Below, piece by piece: positions 4,392-26,589 of a stretch of DNA of 64,000 nucleotides. A model generated the notes under the pieces. That model was not told the origin of the DNA and searched no databases. It was given only the letters and a program-made list of their open reading frames with translations. The stretch is from Candidatus Melainabacteria bacterium (GTDB taxonomy: Bacteria; Cyanobacteriota; Vampirovibrionia; Vampirovibrionales; Vampirovibrionaceae). Within the stretch, counting starts at the first letter, position 1. The number at the start of each line of letters is the position of its first letter. The translations under genes and the position numbers were made by a program. The stretch is from positions 661,687 through 725,686 of the forward strand of contig JBFWUP010000001.1 of assembly GCA_050247195.1 (NCBI GenBank). The letters run 5' to 3'.

Positions 4392-5069
4392 TCAGATACA
4401 GGAGCTAAGTTCCGTCTGGCGGATCAGGCCCTCGGCAATAGGCGCCTGTGCCTGCGCCAGCGGTGAGAACTGACCCTGCTCCGGATTGTAGGCAAACACT
4501 TCGCCGGATTCAATTTTGTAGACCCACCCGTGCAGGTTGAGTTCGCCTTTCACCATGCGAGAAGCAACCGAAGGCAGGGTACGAATGTTTTCCAGCTGTA
4601 CCAGCACATTTTCCTGAATGGCGATGTTCACACGGTCGTTATCCGTGTGGTCCTGGTAGTTCTCTTCCAGAATGCGCCGGGTGGCCTCGGCGTGTTGCAG
4701 CCATTGTCTGACGGCCGGCATTTTTTCATAACTCGCCGGATTCAGCAGACTGTTCATGGCGCCGCAATGGCTGTGGCCGCAGATAATAATGTCCTTGATG
4801 CCCAGCGCCATGACGGCATACTCAATGGTGGCCCCTTCGCCGCCGTTGGAAGCGCCATGGGGCGGGACGATATTGCCGGCATTGCGCAGAATGAACAGCT
4901 CGCCCGGGGCAGTCTGGGTAATCAGGTTGGGGTTAATCCGGGAGTCGGAACAGGTAATGAACAGGGCATCGGGACTCTGGCCATGCTGGCTGAGCCGGTG
5001 AAAAAGCTCCTCCTGGGCACTGAAAACGTGGCTCTGGAAATGGTGCAGACCATGAATCAGTTTTTGCAC
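4392..5069 (-). CDS. can: Beta-class carbonic anhydrase
   Basis: Zn ligands in CSDSR and GHSHCG; GTG start with AGGAG Shine-Dalgarno. Confidence 0.95.
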
Positions 5070-5169
5070 GGGATGACTCCTTCTGTGGCGGCCGGAAAAC
5101 GGCGGCTGACATATAAGAAATAATTAATATGATAACTGTCCGACAGTGTAGATGAACCGTCGGGTGGGG

Positions 5170-5742
5170 TCAAACACCTGGCCACAGGAGGGTGGCCATG
5201 CCCATCATAGCAAGGATCAGTGCAGTGACCATTCGGATGGCATTGAGTGGCAGGCGACTGGCCATGGCGTTGCCCAGGTAGACCACCGGCACATTGGCGG
5301 CCAGCATACCCAGCGTACTGCCCACCACCACAGCCACAACATCGTGAAAACGCGCCGCCATGGCCAGGGTGGCCACCTGGGTTTTGTCGCCCATTTCCGC
5401 CATAAAAAACAGCCACGTGGTAACCCACAGAATATTCGCCGTACCTGCGTCATCCGTGAGGGTGTCTTCATCCGCTGTGTCGGGAATGAGAATCCAGACG
5501 GCCACGGCGAAAAAGGAAACCGCCAGGCCCCAGCGCATCCATTCGGGATTCAGGGAGGCGCGCAGCCAGTAACCCACGGCGCCCGTGCCGGCGTGATTGA
5601 GCAGCGTGGCCAGAAAAATGCCGGCAATGAGGGGCAGGGGACGCCCGTAGCGAACCGATAGCATGAGGGTGAGCAGCTGGGTTTTGTCGCCCATTTCCGC
5701 CAGACAGACCAGCGCCAGAGAGGTGATGAGTGCTGTGAGCAT
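5170..5742 (-). CDS. TMEM165/GDT1 (UPF0016) Mn2+/Ca2+ transporter
   Basis: Two E-M-G-D-K-T-Q signature motifs and about six TM segments. Confidence 0.93.
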   Translation of the reverse strand: MLTALITSLALVCLAEMGDKTQLLTLMLSVRYGRPLPLIAGIFLATLLNHAGTGAVGYWLRASLNPEWMRWGLAVSFFAVAVWILIPDTADEDTLTDDAGTANILWVTTWLFFMAEMGDKTQVATLAMAARFHDVVAVVVGSTLGMLAANVPVVYLGNAMASRLPLNAIRMVTALILAMMGMATLLWPGV

Positions 5743-5769
5743 GATATTCAGTATAGAGGAAAGCGGCGT

Positions 5770-5798
5770 TTGACAGTGCGGGACCCGATGGTTATACT
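5770..5798 (+). promoter_or_regulatory. Sigma70-type promoter of the Met-leader/DUF62 unit
   Basis: TTGACA (5770-5775), 17-nt spacer, TATACT (5793-5798). Confidence 0.85.
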
Positions 5799-5831
5799 CA
5801 CGGTTACGTTATAGGATACGTTTTGATTTTG

Positions 5832-5903
5832 ATGCGCACTGCAGCAGCCAGTATGGCCATGATGGCGATGATGATGCCGGTTACAGACCGGGATCGGCCG
5901 TAA
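5832..5903 (+). CDS. Methionine-rich attenuator leader peptide MRTAAASMAMMAMMMPVTDRDRP (23 aa; not in ORF track)
   Basis: Six internal ATG codons within eight codons (5853-5876); lies between a consensus promoter and a terminator; its last codons carry the antiterminator arm. Confidence 0.8.
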   Translation: MRTAAASMAMMAMMMPVTDRDRP

Positions 5904-5965
5904 GCTGCTACAAACGCATTGCAGTTTTTCTGAAGGCCCGATCCCGGATCGGGCTTTCTGTTTTG
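5888..5965 (+). promoter_or_regulatory. Antiterminator/terminator switch of the Met attenuator
   Basis: Terminator GCCCGATC-CCG-GATCGGGC (5936-5954) plus TTTCTGTTTT; CCGGGATCGG (5888-5897) is the exact reverse complement of 5938-5947, so the two stems are mutually exclusive. Confidence 0.8.
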
Positions 5966-5990
5966 TCATTCAGCATAAAGGAACGCCACC

Positions 5991-7241
5991 ATGGTTACCT
6001 CACCCGTTTTTGGATTGTCTCTGCCGCAACCGTCGCCGTTTCAGGGGGTGAATATCATCACCGATTGCAGTGACGGGTTGACCACGGCCCGCATTGACCG
6101 CCGTCTGGGCGAAGTGGCGGAAGGTGTGCAGAACAAACGAAAAGCACTCTCGGATGCCTTTCCGGATCTGTCCTTTCTGGAGGTGAAACAGGAGGGAGGC
6201 AGCCGGGAACTACATACCCGCACCGTTCCGGATATCCTGCCGGGTTCCGTGGCGTGTGCCGGGCGGGCCTTGATGGAGCTGGCCGGAACCCCGAACCGGG
6301 ATGTGTTTGTCCATGTGACCGACCCCGGTGTGGGTGGCCGCCGGATTCACGACCGCGCCATTCTGGTCACCGAAAACAACGGCGTTCACATTGGCCCGAA
6401 CAACGGTCTCTTCTCGGCGCTGTATCAGGACCTCGTGCGGCAGGGACAGAAGCCCGAACTGCTGACCATTGATCTGGATAAAGTCCAGCGGTTTGAGCAG
6501 GTGCGCACCGATGACCCGGATTACCGGACGGCTGATACGTTTCACGGCAAAAGCGTGTTTGGCGTGATTGGTGGTGCGCTGGCCGGTGGGGTGGATCCTC
6601 ATTTCTTTGCAGACCAGAGACCCGAGGCCCGGCAGAAAGTGGTTGATTCTCCATTCTTCAGGGAGTTAGGCGATTTGAATGTCGATAAGCTTTTGTCTGG
6701 TGAGGCATTGCCGGTGCGTGGTATTGAGGACCGCACCATGGGCAATGTACAGCTGAATGTCCATCTGCCGCGGGAAGCTGCCGACCGGCTGCGCAGCGTG
6801 GATGAACAACCCGGCGCGTTTCCCGTGCTGCAGATCCGTAATCCGGCGGACCCGGAAAAATCCCTGACGCTGCCGTTGCGTCGTTTCTTTGGCCAGGTGG
6901 GCGTGGGTGAGCCCCTGATTTACGCCGGCAGCACCCTGGCCAGCATGCCCGGTAACCGCTTCAACGGTGGGTTGCTGGAAGTGGCCGTCAACGGGGATCA
7001 TGCGGCCCGAAAGCTCGGATTCCCTGAACCTGACACGCGGGTGCTGGAAACCGCCAAATCCATTAAACGCGAGCAGAAGGCGGGTGACGATGTGCCGGAT
7101 GGCAGCGTGCCCCTGGAAATCCGTTTAACAGACGCGGGTGATCCCACCGTCTGGCTGGGCCGGCAGGACAGGGAAGACACCGGCCTTCACAAGGCTGAGA
7201 AACAGCAGCAACCGGGCACCCACTTGTCACACCTGGCCTGA
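5991..7241 (+). CDS. SAM hydroxide adenosyltransferase (DUF62; SAM hydrolase/halogenase superfamily) with N- and C-terminal extensions
   Basis: VTDPGVGGRR, GPNNGLF, TFHGK and LEVAVNG..AA..LG motifs; Asp/Arg/His hydrolase residues present. Confidence 0.85.
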   Translation: MVTSPVFGLSLPQPSPFQGVNIITDCSDGLTTARIDRRLGEVAEGVQNKRKALSDAFPDLSFLEVKQEGGSRELHTRTVPDILPGSVACAGRALMELAGTPNRDVFVHVTDPGVGGRRIHDRAILVTENNGVHIGPNNGLFSALYQDLVRQGQKPELLTIDLDKVQRFEQVRTDDPDYRTADTFHGKSVFGVIGGALAGGVDPHFFADQRPEARQKVVDSPFFRELGDLNVDKLLSGEALPVRGIEDRTMGNVQLNVHLPREAADRLRSVDEQPGAFPVLQIRNPADPEKSLTLPLRRFFGQVGVGEPLIYAGSTLASMPGNRFNGGLLEVAVNGDHAARKLGFPEPDTRVLETAKSIKREQKAGDDVPDGSVPLEIRLTDAGDPTVWLGRQDREDTGLHKAEKQQQPGTHLSHLA

Positions 7242-7287
7242 TGCGCGATAGTGGACGGGTTCACCATGATTTGTGAGGGATTCGTCC

Positions 7288-8286
7288 ATGAGCGCCACTG
7301 CCGGAGACATGTGCCAGAGCCCCCGGGCTGTTGCTGAGAATATTCTTGACCTGGTGGGCCATACCCCGCTGGTGCGCATTAACAGGCTGGCCAAAGGGCT
7401 GCCGGTGACGGTATACGCCAAGCTGGAAATGCTGAATCCGGGCGGCAGCGCCAAGGACCGCATTGCCATTGCCATGATTGATGCGGCTGAAAAGGAAAGC
7501 CGTATCCGCCCGGGCGATACCATTGTGGAGGCCACCGCCGGTAATACCGGGGCAGGCCTTGCCCTGGTGGCTGCCCAGCGCGGATACCGCTGCATTTTTA
7601 CGATGCCCGATAAGATGAGCGAGGACAAAGTGCGCCTGCTGAAAGCGTTTGGCGCTGAGATTGTGATGACCCCCACCAACGTGGCGCCCGATGATCCGGA
7701 AAGCTACAACGGCAAGGCGGATCAGATCGCCCGCGATATCGGTGGTTTTCGCCCCGGGCAGTTTACCAACCCCAACAATCCGCTGGCGCACTACCTCACC
7801 ACCGGCCCGGAGATCTGGGAAGCGCTGGCAGGGCGGGTGGATTACTACGTGGCGGGCATGGGGACTGGCGGCAGTATTTCCGGCACGGGTAAATTTCTGA
7901 AGGAAAAGAATCCCAATCTCACCGTGATTGGCGCCGACCCGGAAGGGTCAATCCTTTCCGGCGATGAGCCGCGCAGTTACAAGGTGGAAGGGATTGGGGA
8001 GGATTTCTTTCCGGAAACCTTTGACCCCACCGTGGTGGATACCATGGTGCGTGTCTCGGACGCCCAGTCCTTTACCATGGCGCGTCGCCTGGCGAAGGAG
8101 GAAGGCATCCTGGCCGGGGGTTCCTGCGGGACGGCCATGCATGCCGCACTGAGCTATGCCAGTGGTCTGCCCAATGATGGCCCGCTAAAAAACATGGTGG
8201 TGCTGCTGCCGGATACCGGGCGGAATTATCTCTCCAAAATATTCAACGATGACTGGATGCGCGACAACGGGTTTCCGTTGGATTAA
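7288..8286 (+). CDS. PLP-dependent cysteine synthase / short cystathionine beta-synthase
   Basis: NPGGSAKDR (PLP Lys), EATAGNTG, GMGTGG, KVEGIGEDF and RNYLSK motifs; ATG 7288 has a GAGGGA SD. Confidence 0.92.
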   Translation: MSATAGDMCQSPRAVAENILDLVGHTPLVRINRLAKGLPVTVYAKLEMLNPGGSAKDRIAIAMIDAAEKESRIRPGDTIVEATAGNTGAGLALVAAQRGYRCIFTMPDKMSEDKVRLLKAFGAEIVMTPTNVAPDDPESYNGKADQIARDIGGFRPGQFTNPNNPLAHYLTTGPEIWEALAGRVDYYVAGMGTGGSISGTGKFLKEKNPNLTVIGADPEGSILSGDEPRSYKVEGIGEDFFPETFDPTVVDTMVRVSDAQSFTMARRLAKEEGILAGGSCGTAMHAALSYASGLPNDGPLKNMVVLLPDTGRNYLSKIFNDDWMRDNGFPLD

Positions 8287-8291
8287 GCCCG

Positions 8292-9035
8292 ATGACGACT
8301 GTTGCCATCTGTCAGTCCAACTACATTCCCTGGAAGGGGTATTTTGATCTGATTGCCCGTGCGGATGCCTTTGTCCTGCTGGATGACGTGCAGTACACCC
8401 GGCGTGACTGGCGTAACCGCAACCAGATTCTGACCGTCGGTGGCCTGCAGTGGCTGACCATTTCCGTGGCGAGCAAAGGCCATTATACGGACCGGATTGA
8501 TGAGATTCGGATCAGCGAGCCGCAGTGGGCAGCGGATCACTGGAAAACACTGACCCACGTTTACGGTAAAGCCGACGGGTTTGCCTGGATGGCCGATGAA
8601 ATGGCGGACCTGTATACCGCGCTGGCCGCAGAGCCCCTGCTGTGCCGGGTCAACCATGCCCTGCTGGCGGTCTTGCTGCGCCGTCTGGCGATTGCAACGC
8701 CGGTGCATCATGCCTCGGATCTCGACCCGCTGAGCACAGAGATTGCCGGGCGGGAAAAGAGTGGCCGCCTTCTCCGGCTTTGCCAGAAACTGAAAGCCAC
8801 GCGGTATCTCTCCGGCCCGGCGGCCAAAGCCTATCTGGATGTGGCCGCCTTTGAAACCGCCGGGATTGCGGTTGAGTGGATGACCTATGATCATTATCCG
8901 GCGTATCCCCAGTTGCACCGACCTGAAGGGGAGACCTGCGTTCATACGGTCAGCGTGCTGGATCTTCTATTTAACCTGGGGCCCGATGCGGCGTATTATT
9001 TAAGAAACGCAGCAATGGCCTCCACCACCCGGTGA
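8292..9035 (+). CDS. WbqC-family protein (putative aminoacyl transfer to amino sugars)
   Basis: QSNYIPWKGYFDLI, LDDVQY..RDWRNRN, YLSGPAA.AY and SVLDLLFN motifs. Confidence 0.93.
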   Translation: MTTVAICQSNYIPWKGYFDLIARADAFVLLDDVQYTRRDWRNRNQILTVGGLQWLTISVASKGHYTDRIDEIRISEPQWAADHWKTLTHVYGKADGFAWMADEMADLYTALAAEPLLCRVNHALLAVLLRRLAIATPVHHASDLDPLSTEIAGREKSGRLLRLCQKLKATRYLSGPAAKAYLDVAAFETAGIAVEWMTYDHYPAYPQLHRPEGETCVHTVSVLDLLFNLGPDAAYYLRNAAMASTTR

Positions 9036-10186
9036 CAATCCCCCGTGGTCATTCCCTGCCAGAGTGGCAGGCGCAACAACGTGGCGCTGATGGCATCCGT
9101 CACCGGCAGCTGGCCGCTGGCGTTGCCCACCCGGCCGAATTTCAGGCCGGCGGGTGCGCTGTGGAGGGGCACATAATGAAAGACCGCATTAATGCCCTGG
9201 CTGTTGAGGTGCGCCATCAGGGCGTCGCGGGTTTCCCCGGCGTGAAGGCGGATGGCGTAGACGTGGGCGTTCTGCTGGGTGCCTTCGGGAATCACAGGAC
9301 GGCGCAGGCGACCCCGCTGTTCCAGATCCTGCAGCCCGCTGTGGTAGGCATGCCATAAAGAGAGCCGGTGGCGGGTGATGGCTTCCGCGCATTCCAGCTG
9401 CGCCCATAAAAAGGCGGCGTTGAGTTCGCTGGGCATCATGGAGGATCCGACATCCTGCCAGGTGTACTTGTCCACCTCGCCGCGGTAAAAGCGCGCGCGG
9501 TCCGTGCCTTTGCGGGCGATGATTTCCGCGCGTTCAGTAAGGGACGGGTTGTTGATGAGGAGCGCCCCGCCTTCACCGGCGGTCACATTCTTGGTTTCAT
9601 GAAAACTCAGCGTGGCGAGATCTCCGAAACCGGCCAGCGGCTTGCCGCCAAAAGCGGCCATCAGTCCCTGGGCGCAGTCGGCGATGATCATCGGCCTGGG
9701 GCCCGGGGCGGCTGCCACCACCGACTCCAGTTCAGCCATGGCGCAGGCCACGCCCGCGTAATGCACCGGGGCAATGGCGCGGGTTTTTGGCGTCAGGGCC
9801 GCCGCCACGGCCGCCGGGTCAAGCGTGGCGGTGTCATCGGTCACTTCCGCAAAAACGGGCACGCCGCCGCAGCGCACAAAAGCGGTGGCCGTGGAGACAA
9901 ACGTGAACGAGGGCATAATGACTTCATCGCCCGGCTGAATGTTGGCGAGCAGCGCCGCCATCTCCAGGGCTGCCGTGCAGGAGTGGGTGAGGATGGCCTG
10001 CCTGGTGTTGGTGTTGGCTTTCAGCCAGGCCTCACAGCGTTGCGTGAAAGGGCCGTCGGCGGCCAGGTGGCCGTTGGCCAGGGCTTCTTCAATGTAGCGC
10101 AGTTCATTGCCGGTCATCACCGCGCGGTTAAAAGGCAAATGGTCGGTCTGCGTGCGCGTGGATGCCGCTGTGGTTACTTCAGTCAC
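8996..10186 (-). CDS. wecE: dTDP-4-amino-4,6-dideoxygalactose transaminase (DegT/DnrJ family)
   Basis: SCTAALEM, PSFTFVSTA, SFHETKN..GEGG, KGTDR..F.RG.VDKYTW and FHYVPLH motifs. Confidence 0.92.
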   Translation of the reverse strand: MTEVTTAASTRTQTDHLPFNRAVMTGNELRYIEEALANGHLAADGPFTQRCEAWLKANTNTRQAILTHSCTAALEMAALLANIQPGDEVIMPSFTFVSTATAFVRCGGVPVFAEVTDDTATLDPAAVAAALTPKTRAIAPVHYAGVACAMAELESVVAAAPGPRPMIIADCAQGLMAAFGGKPLAGFGDLATLSFHETKNVTAGEGGALLINNPSLTERAEIIARKGTDRARFYRGEVDKYTWQDVGSSMMPSELNAAFLWAQLECAEAITRHRLSLWHAYHSGLQDLEQRGRLRRPVIPEGTQQNAHVYAIRLHAGETRDALMAHLNSQGINAVFHYVPLHSAPAGLKFGRVGNASGQLPVTDAISATLLRLPLWQGMTTGDCHRVVEAIAAFLK

Positions 10187-14422: not shown

Positions 14423-16414
14423 ATGGTTATCAGTCCACAATTTGTCGACAAAACTTCTCGCGGTGGTGCAGTGAATACTGCAATCCGGGAACGCCTGCAG
14501 TTTCTGATGATGGATGAACAAACAATTAATGTGTTGATTGATTTTTCGCGACAGCTGCCACAACTATTACCTGAGGTGTTAGACAGTTTTTACCAGCATA
14601 TCGCTCAGGTTCCTGAACTGCAAAACCTCATCGCAAAAAGCGGCACCTCCATTGAGTATTTAAAATCAGCGCAGTCTAAACACTGGGATAAACTTTTTAA
14701 CGCTGAATTTGATGATGAGTTTATTTCGCAAATCTCCAGAATCGGCCAGGCGCATCTGGATCAGAAACTATCTGAAAAATGGTTTTATGGTGGGTATTGC
14801 ATGATTCTGAACAAGTTAACGCAAGTCATTTTGAAGAATAATATGATACGACCGAAGAAAGCGGCTGAGTATATTGAAGCTGTTAATAAGGCGGTTTTTC
14901 TGGACATGGAGTTGATCCTGTCGACCATGGTCAATGAATATTCAGCCAAAGTTGTCGCTTTGGATAGTTCTCAGGCTGCCATTGAATTCAATATGGATGG
15001 AACCATTGTTACTGCCAATGAGAATTTTTTAAGTACCCTGGGTTATAGCATCGGGGAAATCAAGGGAAAGCACCACAGTATGTTTTGCGACCCGGGTTAT
15101 GTAAAGAGCCCGGATTATCCGGCGTTCTGGGATAAGCTGAACCGCGGTGAGTTCGATACAGGGGAATACAAGCGTCTCGGTAAAAATGGAAAAGAAGTCT
15201 GGATTCAGGCAACATACAACCCCATCAGAGACATATACGGAAAACTGGTGAAAGTGGTCAAATTCGCATCGGATGTGACCAGCAAAAAAACCGAGTATAC
15301 GGACTTGCTGGGCAAGGTCGAGGCCATTCAGAAATCCCAGGCTGTCATCGAGTTCAACATGGATGGTACCGTAAGAACAGCCAATGATAACTTCCTGCAG
15401 ACTCTGGGTTATTCTTTGCCGGAGATTCAGGGCAAACATCACAGTATGTTCTGTGACCAGACCTATACAGCAAGCGCCGATTACAGAAAATTCTGGGAAG
15501 ACCTGAATAAGGGTCAGTTCCAGTCTGCCGAATACAAGCGTTTCGGGAAGGGCAACAAGCCTGTCTGGATTCAGGCTTCTTATAACCCGGTTCTGGATCT
15601 GAACGGGAAGCCTGTGAAGGTGGTGAAATATGCAACCGACCTGACCCCGCAGAAAATGGCGAACGCCAAAATGGCAGATGATTTTGAGAAAAATGTGAAG
15701 TCAGTCGTTCAGTCCGTTACCACCTCTTCTTCTGAGATGCAGGTGACCTCACAGACACTCTCAGCCGCCGCTGAGGAAACCAGTCAGCAGTCTTCAGTGG
15801 TCGCCAGCACTGCCGAAGAGCTGTCATCTTCGATCAACGAAATCTCAAGGCAGTTGTCACAGGCGACGGCTGTGGTTGGTACCGCAGTGAACGAAACTCA
15901 GAACTCGTCAAGAATGGTTGCGACGCTTTTGTCGTCATCAGAGAAGATTGGCTCGGTTGTCCAGATTATTAAAACGATCGCCGCACAGACAAACCTTTTG
16001 TCGCTCAACGCCACAATTGAAGCGGCCAGTGCTGGCGATGCCGGAAAAGGATTTGCTGTTGTCGCCAATGAGGTTAAAGAGCTGGCGAAGCAGACAGCTG
16101 CACAGACTCAGGAAATTGAGCAGCTGATTAGTGAGATCCAGGAGGCTAGTTCTTTTACGGCAGACGCTATTAAAGAGATTGAGCAGTCGATTTCTCAGGT
16201 GAGTAATATCAGCAATTCCATTGCATCGGCTGTGGAAGAGCAGTCTGCGGCGACCCAGGAAGTGTCAAAAAACATCATCGGCGTCACTCAGGCCGCTGGC
16301 GACACAGGGCAGGCCTCAAACAGCGTCCTGCTGGCTGCGGATTCATTATTAAGTCTTTCTGAGGATCTTAATAAGCGCGTTGATGACTTTCTGCAGAGTG
16401 TCCGGACCATGTAA
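14423..16414 (+). CDS. Soluble chemoreceptor: protoglobin + two PAS/PAC + MCP signalling domain (start uncertain)
   Basis: Globin helices (FY.HI...P, Q.KHW..LF, IG.AH); duplicated AIEFNMDGT...[11 protein letters not shown]; [20 protein letters not shown] hairpin; no TM. Confidence 0.92.
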
Positions 16415-16722: not shown

Positions 16723-18306
16723 ATGACAGACGTGAACAATTTCGATCGCGAAGACAGAATGCGGTTTTTACAAATCACTCCCACGGACAGTAACAACATG
16801 CGGGAGTTCCTTCCTACTCTGATGCCGCAACTGGATCCGGTACTCAATGATTTTTATGCCCATGTGGGTCAGTGGCAGATGCTGGTTCAGAAACTGGGCA
16901 CCGCTTCCAACATTGAACGGGTGAAGGGGATTCAGAAGCAACACTGGGAAACCCTGTTCTCCGGTCAGTTTGATGCGAATTATTTCTCCCGGATTAACAC
17001 CATTGGCCGTACGCACGAAAAAAACGCCCTGGAGCCCCGGTATTACCTGGGTGGTTATGCTTTTGTTCTGAAAAAGCTGATTGACCTGGTGATTGGCACG
17101 TATACGACTGACCCCAAGAAAAAAGGAGCCTCCGATCCGGGTGCGCAGAAAGCCGCTGATGTCTTGAAATCAATGGTTGGCGCAATTTTTCTGGATATGG
17201 ACATTGCCATTACGGTTTACAACGATACGGTTCGTGAAACAGCCGGTTCGAAGCTGTCTGAGATCACGGTCTCTCTGGATGAAGTGCTGACCAGCGTTTC
17301 CCGTCTGGATCAGAACATCAGCACGACCGCTGCGGCCATTGAACAGATGAACGCCAACATCAGTCAGGTTCACCTGGGCAGCGCCCAGGTCAGCGGTAAT
17401 ATTCAGACCGTGGACGCCAGTGCCGTGGAACTTTCCGACAGCATGCGCTCCATGGCGGCTGCTGCCGAGGAGATGTCGGTCTCGGTCAACAACGTGGCGG
17501 ATTCTATCAAGCAGATGTCACTGGCGATGAATGAGGTGTCGAAAAACGCCACCCATGCCTCATCCATTACCGCCAAAGCTGCTGAGAAAGCCGAAAGTAC
17601 GAAAAATATTGTGGAGACACTGGGACAGTCTACCCGACAGATTGATCAGGTGGTTGAGCTCATTAAAGGCATTGCCTCCCAGACCAACCTGCTGGCGCTG
17701 AACGCCACGATTGAAGCCGCCAGTGCTGGGGAAGCCGGTAAAGGCTTTGCGGTGGTTGCCAATGAGGTAAAGGAACTGGCCAAGCAGTCTTCCACCGCTA
17801 CGGAAGACATCCGCCGCCAGGTCGAGGCCATGCAGGTCAACATGAACGAATCGATGTCAGCCATTGTGGATATTACCGAGATTATTTCCGAGATTGACCA
17901 GATCAGCAACAATATCGCCAGCGCTGTGGAAGAGCAGTCGGCCACGATTCAGGAGCTGACGACCAATGTTTCCAGCGTCGCCACGGTCACCACGGAAGTC
18001 AGTCAGACGGTTCAGAGCGCTGCGGTGAATGCTGAAAAGATTACCGATCTGATGACGGTGTCGAACGAGGCGATGTCCGGCATTACCCGCAACATCGAGG
18101 AGCTTAACCAGGGTTCCAAGGAAGTGGCGAGAACGTCGGCCGATGTGGCTCAGAGCGCCGGTTCCATTACCGAGAACCTGACCCAGGTGAACCAGATGAC
18201 CCACGCCACCATTGCGGAAGTCACCCAGGGTGCCACCAGCAAAAAAGTCGAATCTTCGGGTGGTTTTGCCGCCACAAAGGTCGGCGCTTTTGGAAAAACA
18301 GCTTAG
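16723..18306 (+). CDS. Globin-coupled chemoreceptor (HemAT-like protoglobin + MCP)
   Basis: DFYAHV, Q.QHWE.LF, IGRTH globin motifs; [30 protein letters not shown]. Confidence 0.92.
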
Positions 18307-24876: not shown

Positions 24877-26589
24877 TTACACGCCGCAGTGGGCGTACTC
24901 ATGGCTGTGCGCGCCGGGGTGCGTGAGCGCCCCATGGCTGGCGCAGCCCACCAGCTTGGCGTATTTATAAAGCGCGCCGCTCGGGTAGTTGGGCGGGGGC
25001 GCGTGCCAGCGGGCATGGCGTGCGAGCAGCTCATCCTCGCTCAGCAGCACGTCCAGCGTGCCGGCTTCGGCGTCAATGCGGATCATATCCCCGTCGTGCA
25101 CCAGGGCGATATTGCCGCCCACGTATGCTTCCGGGCACACATGCCCAATCATCAGGCCGCGCGTGCCGCCACTGAAACGACCATCGGTAATAAGGGCCAC
25201 ATGCTCGCCGAGGCCCTGGCCGTATATGGCGGCCGTCACGCTCAGCATCTCGCGCATGCCGGGGCCACCCTGCGGGCCTTCGTAGCGGATCACCACCACA
25301 TCGCCCTTCTTGATTTTATGGTGCAGCACCGCCTCCAGGCAGTCCTCCTCGCGGTTAAACACGCGGGCGGGGCCTTCGTGTTTCATTTTGGCGAGACCCG
25401 CCACCTTCACCACGGCGCCCATGGGGGCCAGGTTCCCAAACAGCACTTTCAGGCCGCCCGTGGGGCGGATAGGGTCACTGACGGGGCGAACCACATCCTG
25501 ATCCTTGGGCAGAACCACGTCTTTCAGGTTTTCCGCCAGGGTTTTTCCGGTCACCGTCATGCACTCGCCGTGCAACAGGCCGGCATCCAGCAAAACCTTT
25601 AACACCACAGAGACACCGCCCACTTTGTACAGGTCGACCATCAGGTAACGGCCGCCCGGTTTGAGATCGGCAATGTGCGGCGTGTCGTCAAACAGGTGGC
25701 CCATTTCCGCATAGGTCAGCTTAATGCCGATTTCGTGCGCGATGGCGGGCAGGTGCAGCAGCGCATTGGTGGATCCACCGGTGGCGGCCACCACGCGGAT
25801 GGCGTTTTCAAAGGATTTACGCGTCAGAATATCGCTGGGACGCAGGTTGTCGTGCAGCAGGCGCATCACTGTTTCGCCGCAGCGCCGGTTCAGTTCCCTG
25901 CGTTCTTCGGCTTCGGCGGGTATGCCGCTGCTACCGGGCAGGGAGAGACCCAGCGCTTCTGAGACGCAGGCCATGGTGTTGGCGGTGAACTGCCCGCCGC
26001 AGGAGCCGGCGCCGGGACAGGCGTTTTTCTCAATGTTGTAAAGCGTTTCATCATCCATACGGCCGGAGGCATGGGCGCCGACGGCTTCAAACACATCGAC
26101 CAGGTTAATGTCCTTGCCGTCCAGATGGCCCGGCATGATGGTGCCGCCGTACATAAACAGGCTGGGCAGATTCAGACGGCACATGGCCATCATCATCCCG
26201 GGCAGGCTTTTATCGCAACCGGCAATGCCCACCAGCGCATCGTACTGATGTGCGTGCATCACCAGTTCCACGCTGTCGGCAATCAGGTCGCGGGTCATCA
26301 GAGAGGCCTTCATGCCCTCGTGGCCCATGGCGATGGCGTCACTGACCGAGATGGCGGTGAATTCCCGGCCGGTGCCGCCCGCTTTGGTAATACCCTCTTT
26401 GACGCGCACCGCCTGATCGTGCAGGGTGATGTTGCAGGGGGTCACTTCGTTCCAGGTAGAAGCCACGCCAATCAGTGGTTTGCTGAGGTCGTCATCCGTA
26501 AGGCCCATGGCGCGGTACATGCTGCGGTGCGGGGCCCAGGTGAATCCTTCGGTCACCTTGCGGCTTTTGTGGCGTAAATCATGGCTCAT
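24877..26589 (-). CDS. ilvD: Dihydroxy-acid dehydratase
   Basis: [40 protein letters not shown] and ITDGRFSG motifs; start MSHDL with SD. Confidence 0.97.

Follow-up and report, generated by a model that had tools for sequence, protein, structure and literature searches.

We examined a 64,000-nucleotide stretch of DNA from a Candidatus Melainabacteria bacterium (contig JBFWUP010000001.1; hereafter the window, whose own numbering is used throughout), taken from a landfill-metagenome metagenome-assembled genome (MAG). The region between a promoter at 5770 and a divergent DUF62-type gene that starts at 5991 is probably a ribosome-mediated (leader-peptide) transcription attenuator with Met control codons. 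The textbook cases of leader-peptide attenuation concern Trp, His, Leu, Ile/Val, Thr, and Phe; control by Met has, to our knowledge, always been left to repressors, S-adenosylmethionine (SAM) riboswitches, and T-boxes.

The elements that a preliminary description of this DNA had listed (a promoter, a 23-codon upstream open reading frame [uORF] with MAMMAMMM, a terminator, and a 10-bp antiterminator arm) are all present where it had placed them, on the plus strand. A sigma-70-like promoter occupies 5770-5798 (TTGACA at 5770-5775 and TATACT at 5793-5798, 17 nt apart; 11 of 12 matches) and is the highest-scoring promoter-like site within 5000-9200; it would put the transcription start near 5805. 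The leader ORF, read from the sequence, runs from 5832 to 5903 (23 codons, MRTAAASMAMMAMMMPVTDRDRP) and has counterparts with Met/Cys/Ile runs at six other loci (L003, L005, L006, L007, L089, and L097). Its control codons, six ATG in eight codons, lie at 5853-5876; the same segment is region 1, the 5′ half of a hairpin in which region 2 is sequestered when the RNA carries no ribosome. The antiterminator 5′ arm is region 2 (5887-5899); its 10-nt core (5888-5897, CCGGGATCGG) matches the reverse complement of 5938-5947 exactly. The intrinsic terminator (5932-5965) consists of region 3 (5932-5943), a CCG loop (5944-5946), region 4 (5947-5958), and a U-rich tail to 5965. Its stem has 12 pairs, seven of them G-C, followed by TGTTTTG; the hairpin is worth -18.9 kcal/mol, and 5932-5958 is the top terminator-like site in the same 5000-9200 scan. 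The enzyme gene has a Shine-Dalgarno (SD) sequence, AAGGAA (5978-5983), 7 nt before its ATG. Since its start codon follows the terminator tail by only ~25 nt, the enzyme gene depends on read-through.

The leader transcript is short (~160 nt, from near 5805 to ~5965) and is mostly ORF. The preliminary description had proposed a check by folding, and the full leader folds better than its shuffled versions (z = -2.9). In all six frames of the window it is the sole place with at least five Met in eight codons. Two places with four Met in eight codons were set aside: one at 2468 is an artefact, out of frame within a minus-strand gene, and one at 26196-26205 is the conserved IlvD motif GMMMAMC. A caveat raised earlier was that AGGA (5813-5816) lies 15 nt from the leader ATG. 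That distance is correct, but an in-frame TTG at 5823 (5823-5825) sits 6 nt after AGGA, so that a candidate alternative start with normal spacing is available; the open-reading-frame listing indeed gives the leader ORF as 5823-5903, with the TTG start. All six related leaders, and an ilv leader in the window, do without any SD.

Under the attenuator model, a ribosome would translate the leader ORF of a transcript begun near 5805 while RNA polymerase heads for the terminator. With Met-tRNA(Met) plentiful, the ribosome would pass the six Met codons and either cover region 2 or let regions 1 and 2 re-pair; region 2 being unavailable, the terminator at 5932-5958 would form and transcription would stop near 5960-5965. 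With charged elongator tRNA-Met scarce, the ribosome would stall within 5853-5876, occupying region 1; region 2, left free, would pair with 5936-5947 once that segment had been made, and the terminator would fail. Polymerase would then read into the 416-amino-acid (aa) gene and, in the window genome, also into a gene for a cystathionine beta-synthase (CBS)-like pyridoxal phosphate (PLP) enzyme. In the absence of translation, the 1:2 and 3:4 hairpins would form and transcription would terminate. A shortage of sulfur amino acids would thus lead the cell to free Met from SAM, perhaps from its inactive (R)-epimer. From sequence we infer that the uORF would be translated, that the leader would respond to Met, that transcription would terminate in vivo, and that the enzyme would have the activity and the physiological role proposed for it.

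The leader recurs in relatives. We collected genes of the enzyme's subfamily from public assemblies and GTDB representative genomes; four of the latter carry one, all Vampirovibrionales MAGs. The module is present in seven loci including the window, and three of the other six are Vampirovibrionales MAGs. Among the seven leader-bearing members the enzyme proteins share 27-38% identity, and GC content ranges from 49% to 62%. Each locus has an upstream intergenic region of ~230-300 nt and shows a sigma-70-like promoter, a uORF of 20-36 codons, a strong intrinsic terminator, a good SD, and the enzyme gene. In six of the seven loci such a promoter stands 26-49 nt ahead of the uORF; the L007 promoter is TTGACA-N17-TATAAC. 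The uORFs are ATG-started (L006 also has an in-frame GTG one codon upstream), and in every locus 81-103 nt lie between the uORF stop and the start of the gene. The main genes all have an AAAGGAG-type SD, and because these SDs sit ~25-45 nt after the terminator there is no room for a promoter of the genes' own.

The leader peptides are MRTAAASMAMMAMMMPVTDRDRP in the window (run MAMMAMMMP), MLTLAIQTAAQTTAMMMSTMMMPFLVEVGTCSAGSR in L005 (run AMMMSTMMMP), MLFSLMCCSMMMPTPPLGALFVENGCR in L003 (run MCCSMMMP), MTFSIRISCQMMMCSPLEGVVVR in L089 (run SCQMMMCSP), MFTPVYSMPMMPSCLMCLALRSDRMRMCQ in L097 (run SMPMMPSCLMC), MSNHSIMMICIICLPNAAGT in L007 (uORF at 2634-2696; run IMMICIICLP), and MIVLTAICSIICPMITSGGV in L006 (uORF at 2373-2435; run ICSIICPMI). 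The preliminary description had looked to the upstream regions of orthologs for conservation of the leader, and uORF, terminator, and antiterminator are kept in all seven. Nucleotide and peptide sequences differ among the loci; their common features are the RNA stems and a run dense in Met/Cys(/Ile) with a Pro beside it. The earlier claim of Met sensing needs to be widened. In its favor are the six ATG in eight codons of the window leader and a computed switch at that run (see below), but relatives add Cys, whose codons stand next to the Met run in five of the seven leaders, and two leaders are dominated by Ile. "Met only" is therefore too narrow, and the family would sense more than Met; which amino acid is read seems to change from one member to another. 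The term "sulfur amino acids" covers Met and Cys, not Ile.

A Pro codon stands right after or inside the run in all seven leaders (at 5877-5879 in the window), in the contexts MMMP, MMMCSP, MPMMPS, IICLP, and IICP; the ilv leaders described below have G-P or S-G after their runs. The Pro beside the run may reflect the GC content of the stem, or it may have a deliberate role as a slow codon or in stalling. Another subfamily member, P0002, is the closest homolog of the 416-aa enzyme (35-38% identity). On its contig (JGI 3300071358) a 40-aa gene is called 110 nt upstream, a position that fits the leader ORFs.

The pairing between leader and terminator is specific to each locus. In every case the 5′ arm of the locus's own terminator has its complement in a segment that begins 5-13 nt past the last codon of the run. 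Duplexes between region 2 and region 3 have a mean energy of -18.9 kcal/mol for cognate pairs, compared with -13.2 kcal/mol for non-cognate pairs, and the true arm-to-leader assignment is the best of all 5040 permutations by duplex energy. The antiterminator arm co-varies with its own terminator. In the window, whose terminator helix was assigned by hand for this comparison, the duplex reaches -21.1 kcal/mol, and four of 1000 shuffles reach the same value.

We then folded transcripts truncated before the terminator 3′ arm with a 29-nt ribosome mask (from -15 to +13 around the A site, an assumed footprint). In the absence of a ribosome, five of the seven loci form zero to two antiterminator pairs, region 2 being held in a hairpin with the run codons. 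With the A site anywhere up to the end of the run, six to 11 antiterminator pairs form; with the A site just past the run, zero to three pairs remain, except that in L003 the antiterminator lasts three codons beyond it. A ribosome at the stop codon leaves zero to four pairs in all loci except L005, whose ORF extends beyond region 2. In the window, nine to 10 pairs between regions 2 and 3 form with the A site at M11-M15 and none from P16 through the stop. The switch boundary thus falls at, or within about three codons of, the run end in all seven loci. The seven leaders follow the classical trp/his design, and the geometry of classical attenuation that the preliminary description had read from the window holds in these folds, as does the switch at the codon run.

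The leader is not a general companion of DUF62 genes. Among 66 canonical DUF62 loci returned by the metagenome scan, none has an upstream short ORF with more than four Met/Cys/Ile or more than two Met in eight codons. Seven other members of the subfamily also lack the leader uORF; their upstream gaps are 0-140 nt and hold no such ORF. These leaderless members are AT-rich and come from apparently different genomic contexts, often with a NUDIX gene next. A blind screen of ~478 kb of compiled sequence on both strands, for a short ORF with at least five Met/Cys or at least six Met/Cys/Ile in eight codons and a terminator within 90 nt, returned exactly the seven leaders and nothing else. In three leaderless loci a NUDIX hydrolase gene follows the enzyme gene, with spacings from a 17-nt overlap to a 2-nt gap (L093 3562-3984, L096 3571-4008, and L098 1414-1872), and in a fourth, L090, the enzyme gene overlaps an upstream thioredoxin-reductase-like gene. 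These contexts hint at a different operon logic in the leaderless branch, in nucleoside or redox metabolism.

A second leader of this kind lies in the window on the minus strand, before ilvB (to 21360) and ilvC (21058-19898). Its ORF, MTQTSSSFVTTNLGTSLLVLLVLIGPAGGF (LLVLLVLIGPAGGF) at 23365-23273, carries a Leu/Val/Ile run, and its terminator (23243-23211) ends ~45 nt before ilvB-ilvC. It has no SD and no Rfam match, and its design is like that of the Met leader: under the ribosome mask, positions at codons 1-22 yield the antiterminator, whereas positions at G25-F30 do not. A homologous leader, MTHLNSLVIVLIIILSGAAGGVI, with its terminator (ACCGCCGGCC...CCGGCGGTTTTTT), precedes ilvB in the Vampirovibrionales MAG L007 (4293-4431); the IlvB proteins of the window and L007 are 65% identical. 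This identity and the shared ilv leader point to the Vampirovibrionia as the probable source of the window, on which a comparison of ArgG is only loosely informative. The ilv leaders in both genomes indicate that the lineage uses ribosome-mediated attenuation and, the window ilv leader having no SD, that SD-less leader ORFs are normal for it. In L007 an ORF at 4472-4627 containing WVVLLV also lies just before ilvB.

Several observations weigh against the attenuator model. The uORFs lack an SD, so their translation is assumed, and the sequencing runs that contain the locus are landfill, sludge, and biofilm DNA metagenomes, with no RNA run among them. The one metagenome contig that covers the leader is identical to the window and offers no natural variants. 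For L089 and L007, 9%-17% of shuffles match or beat the duplex between regions 2 and 3, and the antiterminators of L005 and of the window ilv leader also form in ribosome-free truncated RNA (that of L005 with a ribosome at the stop as well). At equilibrium the full-length leader nearly always keeps the terminator at any masked ribosome position; the model, like that of trp, must thus rely on kinetic competition. On the side of the signal, Met starvation also limits initiation, which could blunt the sensor, and in the L006 and L007 leaders, which hold one or two internal Met, Cys codons and Ile codons (ATT/ATC) predominate, the latter not being accounted for by the model. On the side of the enzyme, whose activity is a predicted one, the catalytic-triad Arg aligns ambiguously (DR for RR), there is a 40-90-aa insertion, and PNNG replaces PDNG.

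The same RNA switch would work alike for any stall within the run, which leaves room for a different stalling signal. The nascent peptide, with its Met/Cys/Ile run plus Pro, might be an arrest peptide of the TnaC, SpeFL, or plant CGS1/MTO1 type that stalls ribosomes at high SAM or Met; the enzyme would then be substrate-induced, and the system would be a ribosome-based SAM homeostat in non-photosynthetic cyanobacteria. The regulated enzyme would be catabolic for SAM, much as tryptophanase under TnaC is for its substrate, and each of the seven leaders has the Pro after or within the run. However, the seven peptides share only composition and one Pro, with no alignable motif or spacing, whereas known arrest peptides have fixed motifs, and a ribosome paused on the Pro codon itself would already favor termination. 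Runs of a single codon are moreover the signature of tRNA-charging sensing, and the ilv leader of the same genome, with a Leu/Val/Ile run and then G-P, is alike in design. We therefore regard an arrest peptide as unlikely.

A very unlikely explanation is that the uORF encodes an independent small protein, Met/Cys-rich and metal-binding, or a precursor peptide, the hairpin being a plain or stoichiometry-setting partial terminator with no sensing. Short Met/Cys-rich peptides can bind Cu(I), pairs of precursor and enzyme with a hairpin between them are common in peptide natural-product clusters, and one gene caller places the 40-aa gene upstream of P0002 at the same position. However, the peptides are not conserved, are 20-36 aa long, and show no signal or leader/core organization, and no peptide substrate is known for the enzyme family. 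In every locus region 2 overlaps the 3′ portion of the uORF and complements its own terminator arm, which a plain terminator does not need, and the position of the computed switch point relative to the run end also speaks for a sensing function.

Still more doubtful is a riboswitch, a T-box, or a protein-dependent attenuator with the ORF incidental. Riboswitches and T-boxes are the usual RNA controls of Met and SAM genes, and a terminator/antiterminator pair is common to all such mechanisms. However, a leader of this length, mostly ORF, matches no Rfam family at gathering score, and up to E = 10 gives only noise; the seven loci share nothing beyond the ORF, the codon run, and the stems. At gathering score the only Rfam match in the window is one tRNA, matches within 5700-6050 are noise (E ≥ 0.4), and a weak hit of Thr_leader, through its terminator part, to the window terminator lacks significance.

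Finally, a functional minus strand, on which a 73-aa ORF (5969-5748) with a His run (RHHHRHHGH) ends 5 nt before a divergent GDT1-family gene (5742-5170) and might be its His leader, can be dismissed almost entirely: any ATG run reads CAT on the opposite strand, the hairpin precedes the His run and its tail is A-rich rather than U-rich, the ORF runs through the plus-strand promoter, and in other loci the upstream genes are different or on the plus strand and the Cys/Ile codons yield no coherent run, so that we judge this ORF a mirror artefact of the plus-strand Met run.

The gene behind the attenuator (5991-7241, plus strand) encodes a 416-aa divergent member of the SAM hydroxide/halide adenosyltransferase superfamily, which includes DUF62, SalL, and fluorinase, as judged by Pfam, PDB sequence search, an AlphaFold model, and Foldseek. 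It scores above the gathering threshold for Pfam SAM_HAT_N (PF01887; 36.2 bits vs. 26.3) and below it for SAM_HAT_C (PF20257; 22.3 bits vs. 25.5). Against the NCBIfam (R)-SAM hydrolase equivalogs NF058624 and NF053629 it reaches only 51.7 bits vs. a cut-off of 350 and 35.8 bits vs. 470; by sequence the subfamily is separate from these equivalogs. A profile of the subfamily matches PH0463, TTHA0338, MJ1651 (now deposited as an (R)-SAM hydrolase), and SalL among PDB sequences, with E-values of 1e-17 to 1e-9. An AlphaFold2 model (pLDDT 81.9, pTM 0.81) gives the enzyme a predicted two-domain SAM_HAT fold; in a Foldseek search of the PDB all 29 matches with E < 1e-3 are DUF62, SalL, ClA, or fluorinase structures, with TM-scores to the target of 0.63-0.74. 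The subfamily is rare, with 17 proteins among 5.8 billion clusters (13 from the profile search, P0002 from a first search, and three from DNA loci only).

The alignment shows no variation in DPGVG or in the FHG core of TFHG, and the TDF..D, PNNG, and C-terminal GS...E.A.N motifs are kept in the subfamily. The PhDUF62 enzyme has an Asp-Arg-His catalytic triad. In the 416-aa protein D111 (in DPGVG) and H185 (in FHG) are invariant and R122 is nearly so; R122 aligns with the second Arg of the canonical RR and D121 with the first, in an ambiguous part of the alignment. The characterised reactions of the superfamily (hydrolase, chlorinase, and fluorinase) attack C5′ of SAM and release L-methionine, and the enzyme is predicted to cleave SAM and release L-methionine likewise. 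We infer this activity, and no more, because the scores lie far below the NCBIfam equivalog cut-offs and the subfamily is separate from them. The earlier assignment as a DUF62 SAM hydrolase holds as to superfamily fold and motifs, but not as to close kinship, the protein being only a distant relative of those enzymes.

Canonical DUF62 enzymes have been assigned to the removal of the inactive (R)-SAM epimer (bioRxiv 10.1101/2025.08.29.672840; PMC12120602), and NCBIfam names likewise label them (R)-S-adenosyl-L-methionine hydrolases. The preliminary description had expected the attenuator to give DUF62 its physiological role; such a role had in fact been proposed already, as (R)-SAM hydrolase (bioRxiv 10.1101/2025.08.29.672840). 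Salvage of Met from the epimer would therefore be cost-free, if this selectivity holds for the subfamily. We ruled out SAM scavenging by a predator auxotrophic for Met, Cys, and Ile: Vampirovibrio chlorellavorus reportedly makes all three amino acids (PMC4451040), and the window encodes ilvBCD and argGH.

A gene for a PLP enzyme with a cystathionine beta-synthase catalytic core, but no CBS-pair domain, follows at 7288-8286 (plus strand), 46 nt 3′ of the enzyme gene. Because the 46-nt gap holds no terminator, the two are probably co-transcribed. It is present downstream only in the window locus and was not found there in the other loci, and was therefore added locally and does not belong to the core logic. 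The preliminary description had raised its co-transcription as a caveat; the missing terminator upholds that point, but the gene, not being conserved, stands outside the logic that the caveat concerned. No partner gene is conserved among the subfamily loci. In the window a WbqC-family gene (8292-9035) begins 5 nt after the PLP enzyme gene and stands tail to tail with a minus-strand gene for a DegT-type aminotransferase (10186-8996), the ends of the two overlapping by ~40 nt; downstream of the subfamily gene lie a RimK-family ATP-grasp ligase in L008 (1004-2122) and a 431-aa protein with no family match in L003 (1462-2757).

The leader shares with trpL, hisL, leuL, ilvL/ivbL, thrL, and pheL a promoter followed by a short ORF with a run of the sensed codons. 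As in those attenuators, four segments form mutually exclusive 1:2, 2:3, and 3:4 hairpins, the stop codon adjoins region 2, and the terminator lies just before the first structural gene. Unlike in the classical systems, the control codons of the window leader are Met (Cys or Ile in relatives), the target is a single, predicted SAM-cleaving enzyme rather than a biosynthetic operon, the uORFs have no SD, and the lineage is the Vampirovibrionia (non-photosynthetic Cyanobacteriota) rather than the Proteobacteria.

The closest parallel is in Actinobacteria, where Cys-rich leader ORFs precede cys/cbs operons (PMC1262725) and mycobacteria have polycysteine leaderless uORFs (bioRxiv 10.1101/834739). 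Both systems place sulfur-amino-acid runs in short uORFs before sulfur-metabolism genes; the actinobacterial leaders are proposed or shown to be Cys-responsive, and five of the seven leaders here hold Cys. However, no intrinsic terminator/antiterminator pair is recognizable in the actinobacterial cases (PMC1262725), some of which are leaderless, and Cys is the only amino acid that they sense, whereas here an explicit terminator and antiterminator are present and Met dominates in the window. With SAM riboswitches and Met T-boxes the leader shares a cis-acting choice between terminator and antiterminator on Met/SAM genes, and the T-box also reads tRNA-Met charging; unlike them, it has no aptamer or T-box architecture, and sensing would be through the translating ribosome.

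The enzyme, for its part, resembles PH0463, MJ1651, TTHA0338, SalL, and FlA in its two-domain fold and in the series TDF..D, V.DPGVG, a basic residue 7-10 positions later, P(D/N)NG, TFHG(R/K), and GS...E.A.N. Unlike canonical DUF62 proteins (~260 aa), the members of the subfamily are 337-428 aa long (354-428 aa in those with a leader), with an N-terminal extension, a 40-90-residue insertion after TDF, PNNG for PDNG, and DR for RR.

The preliminary description knew of no characterised Met leader-peptide attenuator, and we likewise found none in the full-text literature covered or in Rfam; subscription journals lay outside that scope, so that absence is not proven, and the 14 leader peptides of Deinococcus deserti might include one. 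What would be new here is the amino-acid specificity, the type of target, and the lineage, the support being conservation and co-variation. If the model is correct, the conserved Met (and Cys) leader adds the sulfur amino acids to leader-peptide attenuation with a full terminator/antiterminator switch, and extends the mechanism to the Vampirovibrionia, where the ilvB leader shows its general use. Regulation is also independent evidence of function: a gene induced by scarcity of Met-tRNA would probably supply Met, and a rare, divergent DUF62 clade would thereby gain a testable role, that of recovering Met from SAM, perhaps in its inactive (R)-epimeric form. The self-contained leader of ~160 nt could in addition serve as a Met-responsive genetic part.

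Elsewhere in the window, two adjacent genes (14423-16414 and 16723-18306) encode protoglobin-methyl-accepting chemotaxis proteins (globin-coupled chemotaxis sensors), the first of which also has PAS domains.

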